64,000 nt of DNA from Eledone cirrhosa (lineage: Eukaryota), in assembly GCA_964016885.1 (NCBI GenBank), contig OZ024743.1:277636001-277700000 (forward strand), given 5' to 3'. Each line of letters begins with the position of its first letter. The first letter of the stretch is position 1. The notes under the pieces are model-generated. The model ran no database searches and was not told the DNA's origin. It saw nothing but the letters and a program-made list of their open reading frames with translations. Position numbers and translations under genes: made by a program. This document shows positions 1,927 to 54,175 of the stretch, piece by piece.

Positions 1927-1973
1927 CGCTGACAATGTTTCATCCATACCGTGGGGCAGGAATCATCAGAGCG
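1927..1973 (-). ncRNA. Minimal type I hammerhead ribozyme in the inverted pLTR
   Basis: Minus strand CGCT-CTGATGA-TTCC(tgccccacggtat)GGAT-GAAA-CATTG-TC-AGCG; stem I CGCT/AGCG, GUC cleavage triplet. Confidence 0.8.
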
Positions 1974-2215
1974 TTATAAACAAAAATATAGTGCTGAATA
2001 TAAGCTCTACCAAGCTTAGTCACCAGAACAGTAGATATACAGTACGGGTTAATAAGAGGGAGATTGGAGGTGAGAAGGATGGAGAGAATGCGTAATGGGG
2101 TTGTTAGTCAACATTATAGCAAAATATGAGAATACAAGCACATTTTCTCACAAGAGACTGAGGCATGTGAAGGTACACAAAAGCGATTAAAAGCAATTAA
2201 AGATAATTAAAAAGT

Positions 2216-4143
2216 TTGTCTAATTTGATATTGATTTGTATTACACGTAAAACTAAAATCCTTTTTGAGGAGCAATTATGGACCCGGAAGAACACACCTA
2301 ACAACTTTGATATCACAATGGGTTCTAGTGACTCAGCACAGGTCACTGATTTAGTTGGACTTACCTCCTCCATGAGCTGCATAAAACATCTCCGTATATT
2401 CGCGGTGAACTACCCTTGAGTATAAAAAATATAACATTGAAAGGACAACGAAGGACCTACGTAAATTCTTTAAAGGCTTTAACCTTAGTATTACTATGGA
2501 TAGGAATAATAAAACAGTTAACTTTTTAGATGTAACCCTTGACCTAGAATATATGATCTTCCCACCTTATCATAAACCTAATGAGAGACTGACGTATGTG
2601 ACTGCTAATTCCAACCATCCTCAATCATTACTAAATGCAATTATTAAAGGCGTATCTAATAGCATTAGCCGTTTGTCATATAGCGAGGACGCATTTAATT
2701 CTAATGTTGAATATTATAGTGATGCACTAGAAAGGTCTGGTTATAGGAATAAGTTATATTACATACCTAGTAACTTCCAAACCACCTATTCTGGACCAAA
2801 TAGTATAATTACGCACAAAATGTCATTGAAAAATAATAGTAATAGAAATAGGAGTAGGGGTAAGACTCTTATAGTAAATAATTTGGCCCAACCCCTACGG
2901 AATAACCCTACAGTCCATCCTTCTCATATTTCTGCTAATAACACTAATAGCGGTATGATGAGATCTAGAATCTCAACGCACAGTATAGTTGATGATGTAG
3001 GTAGGGACCAAAATAGCGTAGGACATTCACAACAGGTAAATTATAGCAATAATATTGATGGCAATAGGAGTAATGGTGGTTTTTATAGTAACCCTTCTCT
3101 TGTGAGGAAAAATAAAAAAATAGAAGAAGACTAAACATATACTTTAACCCACCCTACAACTCGGAAATCTTAACTAACCTTCCCAGAACGTTCTTCTTAA
3201 CCCTAGAAAGGAATTTTCCGCCTGGCAGTAGATATCATAGTATAATTAATAAAAAAAATACGATTAAACTATCTTATTCCACTACCCCAAACCTAGCCTG
3301 CCACCTAGCACGCACTAATTATAAGAAAATTAGAGTAGGGTTCGACACCATCAAATCTGTAAGTAACCACCAACAACCAAACCCATTGGGAAATGAGTTG
3401 CCCGATGGTGGTAACGACACATCAGAAGTACAAATACCGTATCGGGAAAGTATTACCAACCAGTCCTTCCGAGACACGAGGAGCAATACACGCCGCAACT
3501 GTAATTGTAGACGGAGGGAAAATTGCCCTATGAAGGGCAATTGCCTCATGAGGAATATAGTTTATGTATGTGATGTTGTAACGGCAACCTCTACCAAAAC
3601 GTATGTGAGATCTTCTTCTACCTCCTTTAAGACTAGACACAACTCCTACAAATATACATTTAAATATGATAGGCTCAGGAATACCACCTCCTTGGGTAGT
3701 TATGTTTCCTTTTTAAAAAATGCTAGTATTAATTATACCCTTAATAGGACGGTGGATTGGCAGTATCGGTAGAGGGTCGGACGCCATGCTTTGACGCAAG
3801 GAGTTACGGCCCTTGCCATTCTGAGTTCCAATCCCGCCGAGGTTAACTTTGCCTTTCATCCTTACGGGGTCGATAAAATAAAGTACCAGTAATGTACTGG
3901 TTAATTGCTGGCCTTGTGCTAAAAGTAGAAACAATTAATTAAACCCTTAATTGGAGATTGGTAACTAAATCTACGCCTTACTGCCCCCCCCCCCCCCCGA
4001 GCAAAACTTGTAACCTGTGCCTTCTGGAGTCCCACGCCATAATATACTCTAGATGTAACCTGCTCAATAGGAAATCAGTAATATTTTCTTCTTGTCTACA
4101 TATGAATCTTAGTTCCTTTTACCACTTTAAGCCTATTAGCTAG
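2216..4143 (+). pseudogene. PLE RT + GIY-YIG endonuclease ORF, frameshifted and SINE-interrupted
   Basis: FDITMGSSDSAQVTDLVG, VNFLDVTLDL, PYHKPN, SNHP, YFNPPY, KLSYS, CNCRRRENCPMKGNC, IVY..TYV, FKTR, CNLCLLE..LLNRKS; YxDD region deleted; frameshifts in poly-A runs. Confidence 0.9.
3746..3935 (+). mobile_element. OK-like tRNA-derived SINE inserted into the PLE endonuclease
   Basis: GGTGGATTGGCAGTATCGGTAGAGGG...GAGTTCCAATCCCGCCGAGGTTAACTTTGCCTTTCATCC...GTAGAAACAATT; target duplication ATTAATTA(T/A)ACCCTTAAT on both sides. Confidence 0.9.
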
Positions 4144-6986
4144 ATCTGCCGGGATATCACTCCTCCCTCTTCAGTAACTCTGTAGCACTCTTTCAACGTT
4201 TCGCCACCTTAAACCTATTTCCTTAACCAAATAGCTTCTCTTCATGTTGACCTTCCTCGGTATACAATATTGTATGCCTATGTGCCATTTGTTGCATTGC
4301 ACATATGTATAGCTTGACAATCGGCTGTTTCTGGTTGGCCCGGCCCACTACACGGACGTCCAGGTTCTCAGGGGTGACCCCCCACTTGATCTACACTTCG
4401 TGGGTTCCCTATTGCAATAACAGTTGAGTAGTAACCCAACCCATCCACCCACAACTCGAGCGTTGCTAGTGTGTATGGGTACGCCTGGCCAACGTGTAGG
4501 GCGTGGATTCAAACTTTAGTTGCGTATTTGGTCCCTGATGGATAGCATAGCGTCCCAATAAATATATCTCCTGGATAATGGACGGTACTCTATGGGTATA
4601 ACAGCCCGTAGCTATTACGCAGGAAGTAATTTACCTACTCGCCCCCTTTGGCTTGGTCCCACAGACTCCTATGGGAGTATTTAGTTCCATATATAGACAC
4701 TTCTTGCTGCAGGACATGCGTACACTGCCCAGTCCTGCTACTTAGCAATGGCTATGACTCCTACCGTGGGGATAGACCCCGTACCCGCACCTATATATTA
4801 AATTAGGGTTCTTTTTACCGTAGTACCTATATATAATGCATCTGTTTGAACCCGACCCAGTATGAACACTTCCCCATAGTAGCATTAGTAAAGTAAATTA
4901 TGGTCTTATAAACATATCCTACGTTAAACTGGGATTTAATGGCATATGGTATGATCCATTTGACAACTCTGGAGGTCTAATAATAATATAGTTTTTTTAT
5001 TTGTACGAATTTTATTGACACAGCGTGGTAACTCACTTGGTGAATGAATTTTTGTAGCAGTTGGAAATAAATAATCTCATAGATGACGTGATAGAGTAGT
5101 CCCCCTTTCTCTGTCATTGAAACGTCATTAATTAGTGACTGAAAAGAGTAATACCCCGTATCTGCCTTTTACGTCATGGATTAGTGTGTATATACCTATC
5201 GCCATTGGGACGAATTGTGAAGCGGCTGTGTTTATTTTTTGCGGAGCCGGGTTCCTGGATTATTGCGGGATATAAGAGCTGTCTTGTACGACTAATGTAT
5301 ACCTGAATAAGTACGACCTCATTTAACAGACATGCTGTTGTGCCTGGTGGAATTATGGATTTGATCTGAACACTTTTATGCTATTTTTTGTGTTTTATGT
5401 TACTTGTTAAACCACGTGCTTTACGCGAAGGGTCAACAAGCAATTACTGCTGCATATAATCAAGCAATGTTTAGACGCGGTTACGGTTGGAATACGGAGT
5501 GGGATGCATATAATCATATGAGGATTTGGAATTGTAACTTAGACATGTAACACATCTCAGTCTAGAGTTTTAAACATATGAGGATTTGGATGTGTAACAT
5601 CGGCTTGTAACACATATTACCATATGTGCTGGTATGTATTGGTTGACATATGAATACGGTTGGATTACCATCTACAGACGATCTACACATATGTTATGAC
5701 TTCTCGCCAATTAGGACATATGAAAGCGGTTGGATTACCATCTACGGATGATCTATCTCTGTAATGACTTCTCGCCAAATAAGCCTTAAACCATGTTTGT
5801 TATGTATTGATTGCTTCAGCATCATACTGGGGTGTCACATAGCAAAATGCCATGACCCCGCTTTGACTTTATTTTGGCTTCTATCGGTGTTGTACCTATC
5901 CCTATGCAAGCTTGACACCTCTTATCCACGTAATTCCATAACCTACTGGTATACCCTGATTGTGCATACTATGGGGGGGGGATAATATCCCCTTTGGACT
6001 CTCTTAAGATACCTTAAGGGTCTCATGGCATTTTTCTATGTGACACTCCAGTGTAATGCCGAGTCCTGCATCGCAGGGAACTCTGTATGAATTATTTCTC
6101 TGGTTCATGTTGATACGAAAGGCTCCTATGTGGGATACCCAATAGTGGTGTTATCCTCTCTCCCCGTAGAGAGGCATCAGATGTATGATGGCCTGTATTT
6201 AATGATTGTTACATCAGGGATCTTTAATAGTCTCTTGAGTATATATCCTTGAGTACACCTCTAGTAAGTGTTGTATGGTTGTGTTGAGTAATCGAGTTTG
6301 TAACTTGCCATTTAAAACACTAGCTATACTACCATGACATATCGAACTTGCCCACCGAGAGGGAGGACGTGATCCTGCTGGGCTGGGATCCTTCCCCTTA
6401 CGGTGACTTGGGACACGCATTATTCGTGGTGAAATGAAACTTATCTGATAAACATTCTAATATTGACTATTGTGATGTTTGTAGGCCCTGTGATTTACCC
6501 TATGAACTCATAGTTAGACCTATGACTCTAAGTCATGTGAAATTAATTTGCCTTATCTGCCTCCTGTGGTACATAGTGCATGTATCATTTAATTGCTTCT
6601 GTGTGCGTTCACTTGCCTCTGTTTCTCGTTTGATACTCTATGACTGTAAGTCATGAAAAACTAACTCACCTGTCTTCTATAGTGACCAACGCATACCTTC
6701 TTTTGTTGCTTTTGTGTGCCTTCATATGCCTCAATTTCTTCTCTCTTTTTTAATTATCTTTAATTGCTTTTAATTGCTTTTGTGTACCTTCACATGCCTC
6801 AGTCTCTTGTGAGAAAATATGCTTGTATGCTCATATTTTGCTATAATGTTGACTAACAACCCCATTACGCATTCTCTCCATCCTTCTCATCTCCAATCTC
6901 CCCCTTACAATCCTGTACTGTATCTCTACTGTTCTGGTGACTAAGCTTGGTAGAGCTTATATTCAGCACTATATTTTTGTTTATAA

Positions 6987-7022
6987 CGCACTGATGATTC
7001 CTGCCCCACGGTATGGATGAAT
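6987..7022 (+). ncRNA. Hammerhead ribozyme copy with deleted cleavage site
   Basis: Same CTGATGATTCC...GGATGAA as 1927-1973, but the 14 nt covering stem III and the GTC site are missing between two GAA microhomologies. Confidence 0.75.
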
Positions 7023-7240: not shown

Positions 7241-7656
7241 CGGCGATGAATTAGTTTTGCGAGGTTTTTGATATGAAATCGTGTGTCGAATCAAATATTG
7301 TTATACTTGGGGAGGGTAATATTTGGGTAATATTGCCAGAATTAATAACAGAACACACTCACTGTTTGGTTGGTTTTCGCTTTTCGCTTCTGTGTCTTTT
7401 ATATCGGTTAATTTAATATATTCGGTCCTCAATGTTGCCATTGACTGACCAACGGTCAAAAATACAGATAGAATATAGACACAAACACATATATATATAG
7501 TCTATCAAAGTTCTTTCGTTGCACATCTGCAACATCGTCAGTGGTGCTATTGTTTCCTCCCATGCATCGTATGTCTACGCCATCTTTATTTAGTCTGTTT
7601 ATATATTTATTTATTAATTCTGGCAATATTACACAAATATGACCCTCCCCAAGTAT

Positions 7657-7662
<6 letters not shown>
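7240..7662. mobile_element. (TA)n-embedded repeat with inverted end (7276-7328 vs 7610-7662); another copy at 29612-29740 (minus)
   Basis: TTGTTATACTTGGGGAGGG...GCCAGAATTAATAA mirrored; long match to 29612-29740. Confidence 0.7.
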
Positions 7663-7805: not shown

Positions 7806-7886
7806 ACTCCCTGATGACGTAAGGCTTTTCTATGGATACGCTCCGTAACCATATTTATCCCCTTACAGAAACTAATTAGTTGGAGT
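7806..7886 (+). ncRNA. Type I hammerhead ribozyme (family B, copy 1) in element 7691-8055
   Basis: ACTCC-CTGATGA-cGTAAGG...CCTTACa-GAAA-CTAATTAG-TT-GGAGT; stems I and II pair, stem III is palindromic. Confidence 0.8.
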
Positions 7887-8072
7887 GAAATTTTAGTAAG
7901 TAAGTTAATTTTCATAACTTTCTTATTTACGTCTTTCATATAATTGTTCTGCATCCCCTTGCATAGAACCACAAAGTTACTAAGACAAAACATATATATT
8001 TGCTAACATAGGTATGCATCTGTATACATATGTTGGTAGATATACTAATTCTTTATATATATATATATATAA

Positions 8073-8228: not shown

Positions 8229-8270
<42 letters not shown>

Positions 8271-8337
8271 AAGGTTTAGCAAATAATGAAAATGTTTCAA
8301 AATAAATTTTAAAAAATTGACTTTACCTACTATAGTT

Positions 8338-8420
8338 ACCTTTACCGATCGGTTTCGAATCTCAAAAATAAACGGAGACCATACGGCCTTCGTTGCAAAG
8401 AAAGATTCTCGTCAGAAGGT
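8338..8420 (-). ncRNA. Type I hammerhead ribozyme (left palindrome arm)
   Basis: ACCTT-CTGACGA-GAATCT...AGATTC-GAAA-CCGATCGG-TA-AAGGT. Confidence 0.85.
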
Positions 8421-8960
8421 TCTTTTCATTCGAAGAATATAAAATTCCTGAATTTAAATTACGAACTAGCGCTATCAAAACTGTTCCTGGGATGAGAGTG
8501 GATGATGTAGAAACAGGTTTATCAAGGGCCGAAGTAAAGATAGAGGCAGAAGGAGGTAGGTCAAACCAGCCGCAGCTATCACTAGCAGCAGTCGGAGCGA
8601 CCAAATTTGTTCTCAACTTAGAGGAGCTAGTAATAATAGGATATGTGTTCCTTCACGCACAAGGCGCTAAGGTACGCATGTATTGTCCAACCAAATGCCA
8701 GTGTGGTTCAATAGCGCCTTGTGCGTGAAGGAACACATATCCTATTATTACTAGCTCCTCTAAGTTGAGAACAAATTTGGTCGCTCCGACTGCTGCTAGT
8801 GATAGCTGCGGCTGGTTTGACCTACCTCCTTCTGCCTCTATCTTTACTTCGGCCCTTGATAAACCTGTTTCTACATCATCCACTCTCATCCCAGGAACAG
8901 TTTTGATAGCGCTAGTTCGTAATTTAAATTCAGGAATTTTATATTCTTCGAATGAAAAGA

Positions 8961-9043
8961 ACCTTCTGACGAGAATCTTTCTTTGCAACGAAGGCCGTAT
9001 GGTCTCCGTTTATTTTTGGGATTCGAAACCGATCGGTAAAGGT
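8961..9043 (+). ncRNA. Type I hammerhead ribozyme (right palindrome arm)
   Basis: ACCTT-CTGACGA-GAATCT...GGATTC-GAAA-CCGATCGG-TA-AAGGT; GUA cleavage after 9038. Confidence 0.85.
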
Positions 9044-9223
9044 AACTATAGTAGGTAAAGTCAATTTTTTAAAATTTATTTTGAAACTTTTTCATTATTT
9101 GCTAAACCTTGTTTATATTTGTTCTGGCTCGTTAATTTATTAACCTGCCATTGAACCACACTGGCATTTGGTTGGACAATACATGCGTATCTTAGCGCCT
9201 TGTGCGTGAAGGAACACATATCC

Positions 9224-9321
<98 letters not shown>

Positions 9322-13440: not shown

Positions 13441-13544
13441 TATATATATATATATATAGAATAGCTTTCAGCGTATTTTTGACTAAAGAAATTTTAGCCT
13501 CATAATGGGGTTTAGAACCCTCAGATAAATGGAAAAAGTATTAA

Positions 13545-13612
13545 TGTACATGGGAGTCGAACCCACATCTTTGGTTATCCAGACCACTGTGCTACCATTA
13601 CACCTACACATC
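13545..13612 (-). tRNA. tRNA-like cloverleaf (Gln-like D arm, anticodon GGA), probably a pseudogene or element-borne
   Basis: GATGTGT-AG-GTGTAATGGTAGCAC-A-GTGGT CTGGATA ACCAA-AGAT-GTGGG TTCGACT CCCAT-GTACATT; A/B boxes; TTTTT a few nt downstream. Confidence 0.55.
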
Positions 13613-18137: not shown

Positions 18138-18732
18138 AGAAATAGGATTTCGCTTCAAGCATAGCTTTATACAAAATGTATAAATATTTTGTATCTCCAA
18201 ACAAATACAGTTTTAGGAAGCTGTAGCTATGCAAACACCGGGGGCAAACGCCCTCTGGTGATGTCCAGCAGAAGCCAGGGGACAACCGTCTATGCATTTC
18301 AGGCTTAACTAGCCACCGTCAGGACGGTCCCGCCAACCGCTTGCGACTGCTGGACTAGAAGACAGCTGAGAATATATACTTTTCTCGTCTGTGTAAATGA
18401 GGTGATTAATCTCATTTGCATATGTAGCTCCATAAGTTGGCTCAACTTATAATAAAAAAGAAATAGGATTTCGCTTCAAGCATAGCTTTATACAATATGT
18501 ATAAATATTTTGTATCTCCAAAGAAATACAGTTTTAGGAAGCCGTAGCTGTCTTCTAGTCAGCAGTCGCAAGCGGTGAGAGGGACCGTCCTGACGAAGGC
18601 CAGTTAAGCCTGAAATGCATAGACGGTTGTCCCCCCTTGCTTCTGCTGGACATCACCAGAGGGCGTTTGCCCCCCGGTGTTTGCATAGCTACGGCTTCCT
18701 AAAACTGTATTTCTTTGGATATACAAAATATT

Positions 18733-19938: not shown

Positions 19939-20334
19939 CGTGCAAAAGACTCAGTAAGTCCGAAGAAAACTGGTGAGAATACCAATGTCATCACTCGATG
20001 CAGAGCAGAGTGGATATAATAAGAACAAAGTAGAGGTGTTACATATGAGAATTATATTTTGTTTTTGTTTTTGTTTTTGTTTTTGTTTTTGTTTATAACG
20101 GTTATTTTCTTGTAATGCTCAGGATTCGCGTGTCCGTTGGATTATAGGCCTGTGATTGGTCATTCTATAGGCTTGTTTGTTTCTGGCTGGTTCGTCTTCA
20201 GATTCGATATGATTTTTGTTGTGTTAACACTGGTCTGAGGTTCAGGCAGACTTGGAGTCTGGTGTAGGGTGATGACCCCAGATCACGAGCCAATTTGTAA
20301 CTGGGTTAAGCAATAAGGTTTAGGTTAGCAAAGG
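19938..20334 (-). mobile_element. Probable inverted pLTR of the second PLE, with degenerate HHR (~20123-20206)
   Basis: Minus strand CGAAT-CTGAAGA-CG...CG-GACA-CGCG; directly upstream of the PLE ORF, abutting (TA)n. Confidence 0.4.
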
Positions 20335-21293
20335 TATTCCTAACCTAAACCTTAAAATTACTATAGATACGAATATTACTAATACTAACTTTCTTGATAT
20401 TAATCTTGATCTACTTACTGCCTCTTTTAAACCTTATCATAAACCTAACGAGAATTTAAGATATATACACAAAAAGTCTTGTCATCTCCCTATAGTCTTT
20501 AAACATCTTATCCCTAACATTAGCCGTAAGATTTCTACCTTATCTTCGTCTATAGACATTTTTAACAAAGCCGCTCCTTATTATAATAAGGCCCTCAATA
20601 ACAGCGGCTTCACCGAACACATTAAATATTCACCTACTCCTCTCTCTAACACTAAGCACAATAACAGGAAAAGAAAATTATTTGGTTTACACCCCTTCTC
20701 TCTAACTGTTAAAACTAATGTAGGAAGAAAATTCCTCGACCACCTAGACAAACATTTCCTCCCTAATCATACATATAATAAGATATTTAATAGAAATGTA
20801 GTCAAAATCAGTTACTCTTGCTGCCCATCAATGAGGACTAAAATTCCCAACTCTAATCGTACGAGAGGAAATCCAAGATGCAGTTGCAGGAAGCCGGAAG
20901 AATGTCCATTACAGGGTAAATGTAATACCAAATCCATTGTGTATGAGACCAAATTGACACCGATGATTAATAACCAGCCAGCGAGGAGTGAACGATATAT
21001 TGGCATGACTCAGGACAGATTCAAAACTAGGTATTATGCACATGTCGCTTCTTTCAAACACCCTCAAAAAAGAACAGCAACGGCGCTGGCAAATAAAGTG
21101 TGGAAGTTCAAAGACAAAAACATTCCGTACACTATTGATTGGTCTATTTCAGACCATTCAAGAGAATACCAAAGAGAATACAAAGAAATGTTCTTTGTGT
21201 ACCACAGAAAAATTTAGAATTCTCCAAAACTTGAAAGTCCCTTCCACTTGCCTCAACTCTAAGACCGGTCTGCGTTCAAGAAACCACTGGTAA
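20335..21293 (+). pseudogene. Second Naiad-type PLE RT-thumb + GIY-YIG ORF fragment
   Basis: NFLDINLDL, KPYHKPNE, KISYSCCPSM, CSCRKPEECPLQGKC, SIVY..RYIGMT..FKTRY..H, KCSLCTTEK; frameshifts. Confidence 0.9.
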
Positions 21294-28128: not shown

Positions 28129-29740
28129 ATATATTATATCAACTTAATAAAATTAACAATGGACAGGACAATGAACGAAAAACTATTTTTAAGGGGACAC
28201 CTTAAAAAACTATTTAAAATAATAAAACACAAACGAAGGGCACAGCACTCCAGGATCATCGTCCGTTGAGGTGGAATTTTGTAGTTTCGACCCTTACCAG
28301 TGGTACTGCTAGTTCACCCGGGGTCACAGCGTCTGTCACAATCCAAATGCTGTCAAGTGGAGTAAGAGATGAGAGACAAAACATTAATTTATAACATTTA
28401 AGCTACAGCAAGTACATATTTTCGAAAGTAATGATTGTGTTTAATATATCACACACGAGTAAAAGTAATAGCTTGTAAGTTATTTTAAGTATACTTTCTT
28501 AATAACTCCAACTGCATAGTCAACTTCTTCCCACACCCCACATATATTTATATATTGTTTGAGGATACATTCCTCCTCCTCTCTAAGCAGTAAAAAACGG
28601 AAACAAATATAAACAATATCTGTGAGTTATGGCCACTGGCTTGTTTAGGTTTTTCGGGTAAAACCTATTAACTTGACTTACGCGAGTAATACTCTTGATA
28701 AATGCATGAACATCACATAATCTCTTTTGACATCGCAATATATATGAGACGGTTGATTAGGTAATAAACAAATCAATATTAATTCACCTGTGCTTGTCTA
28801 AATGACAGCAAACTATCTTAGTATTTAAAAAAATTACAAGTGAAGAACCATATATAACGAGCAATACACACAAGAATACGATCATCCCCATACAGATTCC
28901 ACACATTACACACAAATACATACCCATTATCATCAATCATTCTTTTAACTAGATGAGTGCATTCGCAAGCTTTGAAGAGATTTTCAAGTATCTTTATGAT
29001 TTTTCAAAGACCTGAATTTCATTTGATGCTACGAATATCTACATCAAAGTGCTTTTAAAGTAAACCAGAAGATTCGCAGTCGATTCTAAATTGGTATCAG
29101 GTGAAAAACGGGTAAAGTAAGAATGTGAGAATCCTAGAACTGGTGAAAACCCAGGTGCACTACATCTATAATCTATTTACCCTACTGAGAAAAGTAAAAG
29201 AGTGTGAACAAGAAAGTTATCTTTTATTCGAGTTTTGTGTCTGGCAGCATGGTGATCATGGTTCCGATTTCAGCTGCATTCTCCAATCAAACGGGTTAGC
29301 AGATGTTGAAATAATCTCTCCCTCGGTGTGTTTACCCTGTCAGTCCACGAGCAGCTACAAGTCTATTTTTGAATGGTCACTATAGCAGATTTCCGCATTT
29401 TATCTCGGTTACCGACCTTACTACCGAAAGTGGTTTGGAATGGATGGCTTATGAGTGAATTATAAGTGTAAAGGTATACATGTTTATATGCAACATGTAC
29501 ATAAACATCTATACCCCCGCACACCCATTCATATTCTTACACTCATATATATACATATATGCATATATATATATATATATGTGTGGGGGTATAGATGTTT
29601 ATGTACATGTCAGTCAATGGCAACATTAAGGACCGGTATAAAAGACACAGAAGCGAAAAGCGAAAACCAACCAAACAGTGAGTGTGTTCTGTTATTAATT
29701 CTGGCAATATTACACAAATATGACCCTCCCCAGGTATAAC

Positions 29741-29822
<82 letters not shown>

Positions 29823-54093: not shown

Positions 54094-54175
54094 ACTCCCT
54101 GATGACGTAAGGACTTCTCTATAGTTGCATTACGTAACTATATTTATTCCCTTACAGAAACTAATTAGTAGGAGT
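54094..54175 (+). ncRNA. Type I hammerhead ribozyme (family B, copy 2) in element 53960-54350
   Basis: ACTCC-CTGATGA-cGTAAGG...CCTTACa-GAAA-CTAATTAG-TA-GGAGT; inverted end 53960-54028 vs 54168-54238. Confidence 0.85.

Follow-up and report, generated by a model that had tools for sequence, protein, structure and literature searches.

Animal non-LTR retrozymes are non-coding tandem units of a few hundred nucleotides with a GC content below 50%. They carry one type I hammerhead per unit with a palindromic helix III, are dispersed as monomers to multimers, and have been proposed to depend on Penelope-type elements (PLEs) (Cervera and de la Pena 2020, PMC7229834; Li, Clavereau and Pollet 2026, bioRxiv 10.64898/2026.07.22.740005). 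Circles have been demonstrated for some animal retrozymes (PMC7229834). In the accessible text of these two papers, PLE dependence is argued from co-occurrence and pLTR homology, and we found no description there of insertion ends, inversions, or tails.

Insertions of PLEs themselves contain partial tandems with an adjacent inverted, 5′-truncated copy, an extension of 30-40 nt at one end only, (TA)n targets, and no readable target-site duplication (Craig et al. 2021, PMC8557442; Arkhipova et al. 2013, PMC3846280). Self-priming has been proposed for such head-to-head structures (PMC3846280), and Craig et al. named the origin of the inversions and tails as unresolved (PMC8557442). Biochemical information comes from PAc, the Poseidon protein of Anolis (Frangieh et al. 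2024, PMC11167929). In vitro, PAc cuts and extends both strands of its target, prefers AT-rich DNA, is predicted to form a dimer, and begins synthesis at two internal sites of the RNA, which lie past the hammerhead and bound the "tail". The two strands did not differ in start site, and hammerhead cleavage was not needed. The template in that study was linear, and its accessible text does not tie the pair of start sites to opposite arms of a single inverted insertion, and no match came from a term search across three of its text supplements (PMC11167929).

Here we describe a palindromic locus of Eledone cirrhosa found in a 64,000-nt stretch of DNA (the window; GCA_964016885.1, contig OZ024743.1, positions 277,636,001 to 277,700,000 of the forward strand) from a 3.0-Gb, microsatellite-rich assembly. 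Neither the type of element nor the combination of inversion and tail is new. The unit shares the structural retrozyme features and the PLE-insertion features listed above, but it differs from the former in a 40-nt extension of helix II and from the latter in having no ORF and a tail of 110 nt, whose one-endedness we could count. As in PAc, two sites lie downstream of the hammerhead, the first of them 80 nt past the cut, compared with 85-92 nt computed from the PAc paper (PMC11167929). Whereas the retrozyme papers start from co-occurrence and pLTR homology, our case for PLE dependence comes from insertion anatomy, and a comparison with one PLE family of the genome gave no pLTR match. We think it probable, and say so with good confidence, that a PLE enzyme copies this non-coding 481-nt unit into (TA)n by priming both cut strands, using site A for one and site B for the other.

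Anatomy of the Locus

An earlier note made from the sequence alone had described arms of about 407 bp with two mismatches around a 42-nt spacer, followed by the reverse complement of the spacer and a restart of the arm at 9193 that defined a 481-nt unit. This description is confirmed throughout. The arms at 8263-8669 and 8712-9118 measure 407 nt each and differ at exactly two positions (8293/9088 and 8362/9019), the reverse complement of the spacer lies at 9151-9192 with one mismatch, and a 37-nt direct repeat begins at 8712 and again at 9193, which sets the unit at 481 nt. Unit positions (q) are counted from window position 8712 (q1). The spacer is part of the left (minus) arm and shares its orientation. 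This arm reads back across the whole unit into the previous one, to about position 439. Table 1 collects the features.

Table 1. Features of the palindromic locus (window coordinates)
Feature	Position	Strand	Remark
(TA)n target, left side	8240..8266	.	overlaps arm end by TATAT microhomology
Left arm, ~450 nt	8263..8712	-	3′ end at fixed site A (unit position 407)
Mirror hammerhead	8338..8420	-	stem II A-U where the plus copy has G-U
Head-to-head joint of two 5′-truncated arms	8711..8712	.	~1 nt common sequence
Right arm, 517 nt (481-nt unit + 36)	8712..9228	+	3′ end at fixed site B (position 36/517)
Type I hammerhead motif, predicted cut after A9038	8961..9043	+	long helix II extension; palindromic helix III
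110-nt "tail", site A (9118) to site B (9228)	9119..9228	+	at one end only
(TA)n target, right side	9227..9319	.	

The joint falls at a different position in every copy of the family. The tail contains the block that is best conserved across old subfamilies, and a 20-nt word from 9119-9142 has 2391 exact genomic copies against 0 for the control. Six-frame translation revealed no long ORF in the unit, and a tblastn comparison of PLE protein with the unit gave no match. In a fold computation the palindrome forms a hairpin of -787.7 kcal/mol (z -69). If the locus is transcribed, its sequence leads one to expect long dsRNA, in which the hairpin would bury both hammerheads.

A Dispersed Non-Coding Family

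The exact hammerhead pattern occurs 1031 times in the genome (control 0), and a DNA similarity search in which 40 of 1840 candidates were scored returned 121 matches with up to 99% identity. Units measure 481-485 nt with a GC content of 39% and are dispersed as monomers to multimers, with arrays reaching about 12 units; the loci L152, L166, and L180 hold arrays of about 9-12. The same unit with the same two ends is found in older subfamilies that are 70-90% identical, and almost every 3′ end adjoins a TA run. On C2, the loci L022 and L026 lie 0.6 Mb apart and share one insertion together with its flanks; they represent a local duplication, which was counted once. The family is a non-coding, hammerhead-bearing animal non-LTR retrozyme with Penelope-type insertion anatomy. 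Because the PLE ORF (RT plus GIY-YIG endonuclease) is absent from the unit and, as a continuous part, from all sampled loci, it is non-autonomous.

Two Fixed 3′ Ends and Their Pairing

The two ends of the window locus recur throughout the family. For site A (9118 in the window, and the end used at 8263) there are 326 junctions with (AT)n, whereas there are 0 for an internal site carrying the identical TTTATAT microhomology. Site B, used at 9228 and spaced 110 nt from A, is joined to (AT)n 73 times, a count from the forward strand alone since the pattern inflates the reverse-strand counts. The free circular permutation expected by the earlier note was not borne out: the 3′ ends of the arms are fixed at these two sites, and only the 5′ ends are scattered.

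Fixed ends of this kind bear on which enzyme is responsible. L1 elements generate inversions by twin priming, and a LINE protein might mobilize the unit in the same way, priming at TA-like microhomologies. Short TAT/ATA microhomology to the target is indeed present at both ends, and LINE RT fragments occur in the window. We nevertheless find this explanation improbable, given that the ends have no poly(A) or repeat tail, that the internal site of equal microhomology is ignored in favor of site A, that either site serves on either arm, and that an ORF-bearing PLE-like family of the same genome, discussed below, has an identical end grammar.

The ends also combine in a regular way. Over all sets, head-to-head insertions comprise 83 A+B, 2 A+A, and 0 B+B. 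On C1, a series of 52 consecutive hammerhead loci includes 26 head-to-head pairs: 21 A+B, 1 A+A, 0 B+B, and 4 having one other end (p = 5e-6 for the A+B excess against 50:50). Similarity searches supplied 45 further loci, the window locus among them, with 30 A+B, 1 A+A, and 2 other; these searches favored loci with the tail, and the set is biased towards B. Finally, a validation set stated beforehand consisted of 77 unsampled loci picked only by their A end, a design that cannot reveal B+B. A partner arm was present in 32 of them, and it ended at B in 32/32. Single-armed loci account for 25/52 of the C1 set and 45/77 of the validation set. Either site can be found on the longer or the shorter arm, and the overlap at the joints is mostly 0-5 nt, as for end-joining.

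The earlier note had inferred a fold-back origin, in which one cDNA primes on itself and makes the mirror arm. The near-perfect identity of the arms speaks for it, private variants common to both arms would also be expected from such self-copying, and a few joints need loops of only 13-48 nt. The geometry of the window locus is incompatible with this account. The spacer has the orientation of the left arm, and the left arm would therefore have been made first; yet it lacks q408-435 (9119-9146), which the right arm contains and for which no template would have existed. The same reasoning excludes 29 of the 83 A+B pairs (5/21, 9/30, and 15/32 in the three sets). For the other pairs, the loops required range over 13-444 nt without piling up among the short ones, many joints have little or no common sequence (for example L147), and self-priming leaves unexplained the use of the opposite fixed site by the second arm. 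We regard fold-back as very unlikely, and the joints argue against the PLE self-priming model (PMC3846280) for this family. Two independent RNA-templated syntheses, one per target strand, would by contrast account for all A+B cases, as we infer from the insertion anatomy, and would agree with the behavior of PAc in vitro (PMC11167929).

A fold-back could also be introduced by assembly or sequencing, and no contig from independent runs spans the locus, as expected of short-read contigs over a repeat. Such an artefact would have to produce arms with three private mismatches and asymmetric ends, set between flanks that are unrelated on the two sides, and more than 80 other loci that obey the same end rule with different joints. 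In addition, the fixed ends are visible in contigs of the independent runs, which have loose (AT)n ends at 9118 and 8748. The chance that the palindrome is artefactual is negligible, and this concern, which the earlier note had raised against its own reading, can be set aside.

The scattered 5′ ends cluster slightly at q336-339 (window 9047-9050), at the base of an AT-rich hairpin after the hammerhead; 6/109 lie at q336-337 in the validation set. Polymerase stalling or TA microhomology may be responsible. Run-off at the hammerhead cut, with 5′ ends at unit 327/328, was considered and rejected: 3/147 ends lie at 328 (p = 0.07), a second set scored by eye gave 4/~26, and the validation set gave 2/109 (p = 0.21).

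The Hammerhead

Both arms carry the hammerhead, as the earlier note had claimed, with the refinement that the two lie on opposite strands. The plus copy has stem I ACCTT/AAGGT (8961-8965/9039-9043), the core CTGACGA, a 6-bp stem II, the helix III palindrome ACCGATCGGT at 9028-9037, and GUA at 9036-9038. A comparison with Rfam gave no match; the call is supported by pattern, copy number, and covariation. Among 17 diverse copies picked by hand, 95% of cells are paired, against 20-56% in slid controls, and two-sided changes occur in 6/19 pairs; a shuffle test of this covariation is inflated by kinship among the 17 copies. Because the stems covary across subfamilies, cleavage appears to be under selection. 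In computed folds, the isolated hammerhead folds no better than shuffles (z -1.2 and -1.9), and stem I is absent from the circular minimum-energy fold. The helix III loop, which the search pattern left free, is GATC, GTAC, or GCGC in most copies, each of them palindromic. This would fit selection for dimeric hammerheads, which are known for PLE and animal hammerheads (PMC4209133).

The RNA Template

Arms often cross the hammerhead cut and the unit junction, continuing for up to about 10 units, so the template must have been circular or multimeric, or the enzyme must have jumped between templates. To this extent the earlier note's idea of a copy made from a circular or multimeric RNA is upheld. 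The arms of one insertion disagree at only 25/1629 subfamily-diagnostic sites (1.5%) compared with 38% for random pairs, a count that excludes 7 loci with two separate insertions, one duplicate locus, and pieces of <86% identity. These sites replaced an initial comparison of the between-arm distance with the distance to the nearest other locus (smaller in only 13/46), which proved uninformative because subfamily members are near-identical. Long arrays show 0-0.2% internal divergence while differing from sister arrays by 1-5 fixed changes. Variants private to a locus are present in all covering units in 14 cases, 9 of them across both arms, and one such variant occupies all 11 units of L180. 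Another 181 are limited to a single unit, which identifies most of the variation as later mutation. An A-to-I editing signature was looked for and rejected, with A>G at 0.33 and T>C at 0.37 per column and no strand bias.

A linear template is an alternative. An uncleaved multimeric transcript of a tandem array, or monomers joined by template jumps, could serve the same two-site PLE priming, and the long genomic arrays at L152, L166, and L180 could supply such transcripts. Moreover, PAc accepts RNA in vitro that has not been processed, and mutation of the hammerhead leaves insertion normal in the accessible account of that system (PMC11167929). Against this stand the homogeneity of the arrays, with their fixed differences from sisters and private variants fixed on both arms, which call for a bottleneck of one unit, and the covariation of the hammerhead stems, from which cleavage appears selected. 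We consider a linear template possible though doubtful. A circle could provide the one-unit bottleneck; alternatively, gene conversion or homogeneous sources outside our sample could explain the same sequence patterns. On these patterns, we lean toward a hammerhead-cut, ligated 481-nt circle, produced from tandem-array copies elsewhere, as the template.

Age and Activity of the Window Locus

The earlier note had singled out this locus as very young and the best candidate for a currently active retrozyme, a ranking that the family does not sustain. Its arms diverge at 3/441 positions (0.68%), near the family median of 1.05% (n=46), and the arms are closer in 16 of 45 other two-arm loci. The three differences are rare alleles and therefore likely mutations that arose after insertion. 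With one hammerhead per strand, the locus cannot free a unit by double cleavage, unlike the 16/52 sampled family loci with tandem same-strand hammerheads. It is likely a recent insertion, a young daughter copy, and a dead end.

An ORF-Bearing Family in the Same Genome

A second family of the genome encodes a 714-aa protein, with many intact ORFs. GIY-YIG, RVT_1, or HTH_animal is found in its Atlas neighbours (0.96-0.99); comparisons of this and other PLE-like proteins with Pfam and PDB gave no match. From Atlas, motifs read by eye, and insertion anatomy, the protein appears to be PLE-like. The family has its own hammerhead and ends at +84-89 or +157 from the hammerhead start, with one end of each type in 5/5 resolvable two-arm insertions; two more insertions ran beyond the fetched stretches. 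As it has no DNA similarity to the 481-nt unit, this family demonstrates the end grammar and does not identify a partner. Its units (L094:3186-5353 and related) include ~2 kb of dinucleotide-repeat-rich sequence, two related hammerheads, and a 70-nt tail, and many copies with intact ORFs are 99-100% identical.

Other Elements in the Window

Several further elements surround the locus. A second hammerhead-like family is present at 7811-7880 and 54099-54170 (+), with a CTGATGA core, a long helix II, and a palindromic helix III (CTAATTAG); very high contig depth at 7925-8040 makes it probably large. A third, minimal hammerhead-like motif with a palindromic helix III (ATGCAT) lies at 18585-18630 (+). 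Beside (TA)n, at 7298-7660 and ~29540-29745, there is a short element with imperfect inverted ends and a stretch that by eye resembles the unit sequence at window 9130-9155, possibly another head-to-head non-autonomous family. Broken PLE-like ORFs occur at 2409-3772 and 20324-21217 (regions 1939-7021 and 20324-21217), the former flanked by 275-nt inverted repeats (1939-2213/6747-7021, 96%). A tRNA-like match at 13542-13612 (-), with 46.7 bits, is possibly a SINE head.

A Probable Mechanism of Two-Site Priming and Its Significance

How might a PLE enzyme produce these insertions? A PLE protein, probably as a dimer, would bind the RNA region from the hammerhead to site B and nick both strands of a TA run. 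Two reverse transcriptions would then proceed on one RNA species and stop at variable points, both enzymes perhaps rolling around the ligated 481-nt circle, and the two cDNAs would be end-joined, their overlap forming the palindrome. The most specific version of this scheme, in which an enzyme dimer holds a single retrozyme RNA circle, obligatorily primes the two strands at two different fixed sites, and rolls with both subunits, we put forward tentatively, with confidence just short of even. Some observations sit awkwardly with the scheme: to explain the single-armed majority it must assume that the second cDNA was lost or failed, the tail is 110 nt long against 30-40 nt in print and 70 nt in the 714-aa ORF family, and PAc in vitro showed neither a strand difference in start site nor a need for hammerhead cleavage (PMC11167929). 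An autonomous element with the unit sequence was not found among one PLE family compared by DNA, 132 scored of 72994 PLE-protein candidates, and all sampled loci. The partner searches returned older non-coding subfamilies only, and none of the sampled loci has the unit running into a PLE ORF.

In our search of the literature, in which older Penelope work and subscription papers are poorly covered, neither a pairing rule nor twin priming for PLEs was found in print. With A+B pairing near-obligate and fold-back excluded, the family provides a sharp prediction for the in vitro PLE system. More broadly, its large set of young insertions lacking an ORF offers a test both of the origin of PLE inversions and tails and of the movement of animal retrozymes by PLEs. 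If a dimer on a circle is indeed at work, PLE tails, head-to-head inversions, and tandem arrays would all arise in one step, and the anatomy of the insertions would provide direct evidence that circles of animal retrozymes serve PLEs as substrates.
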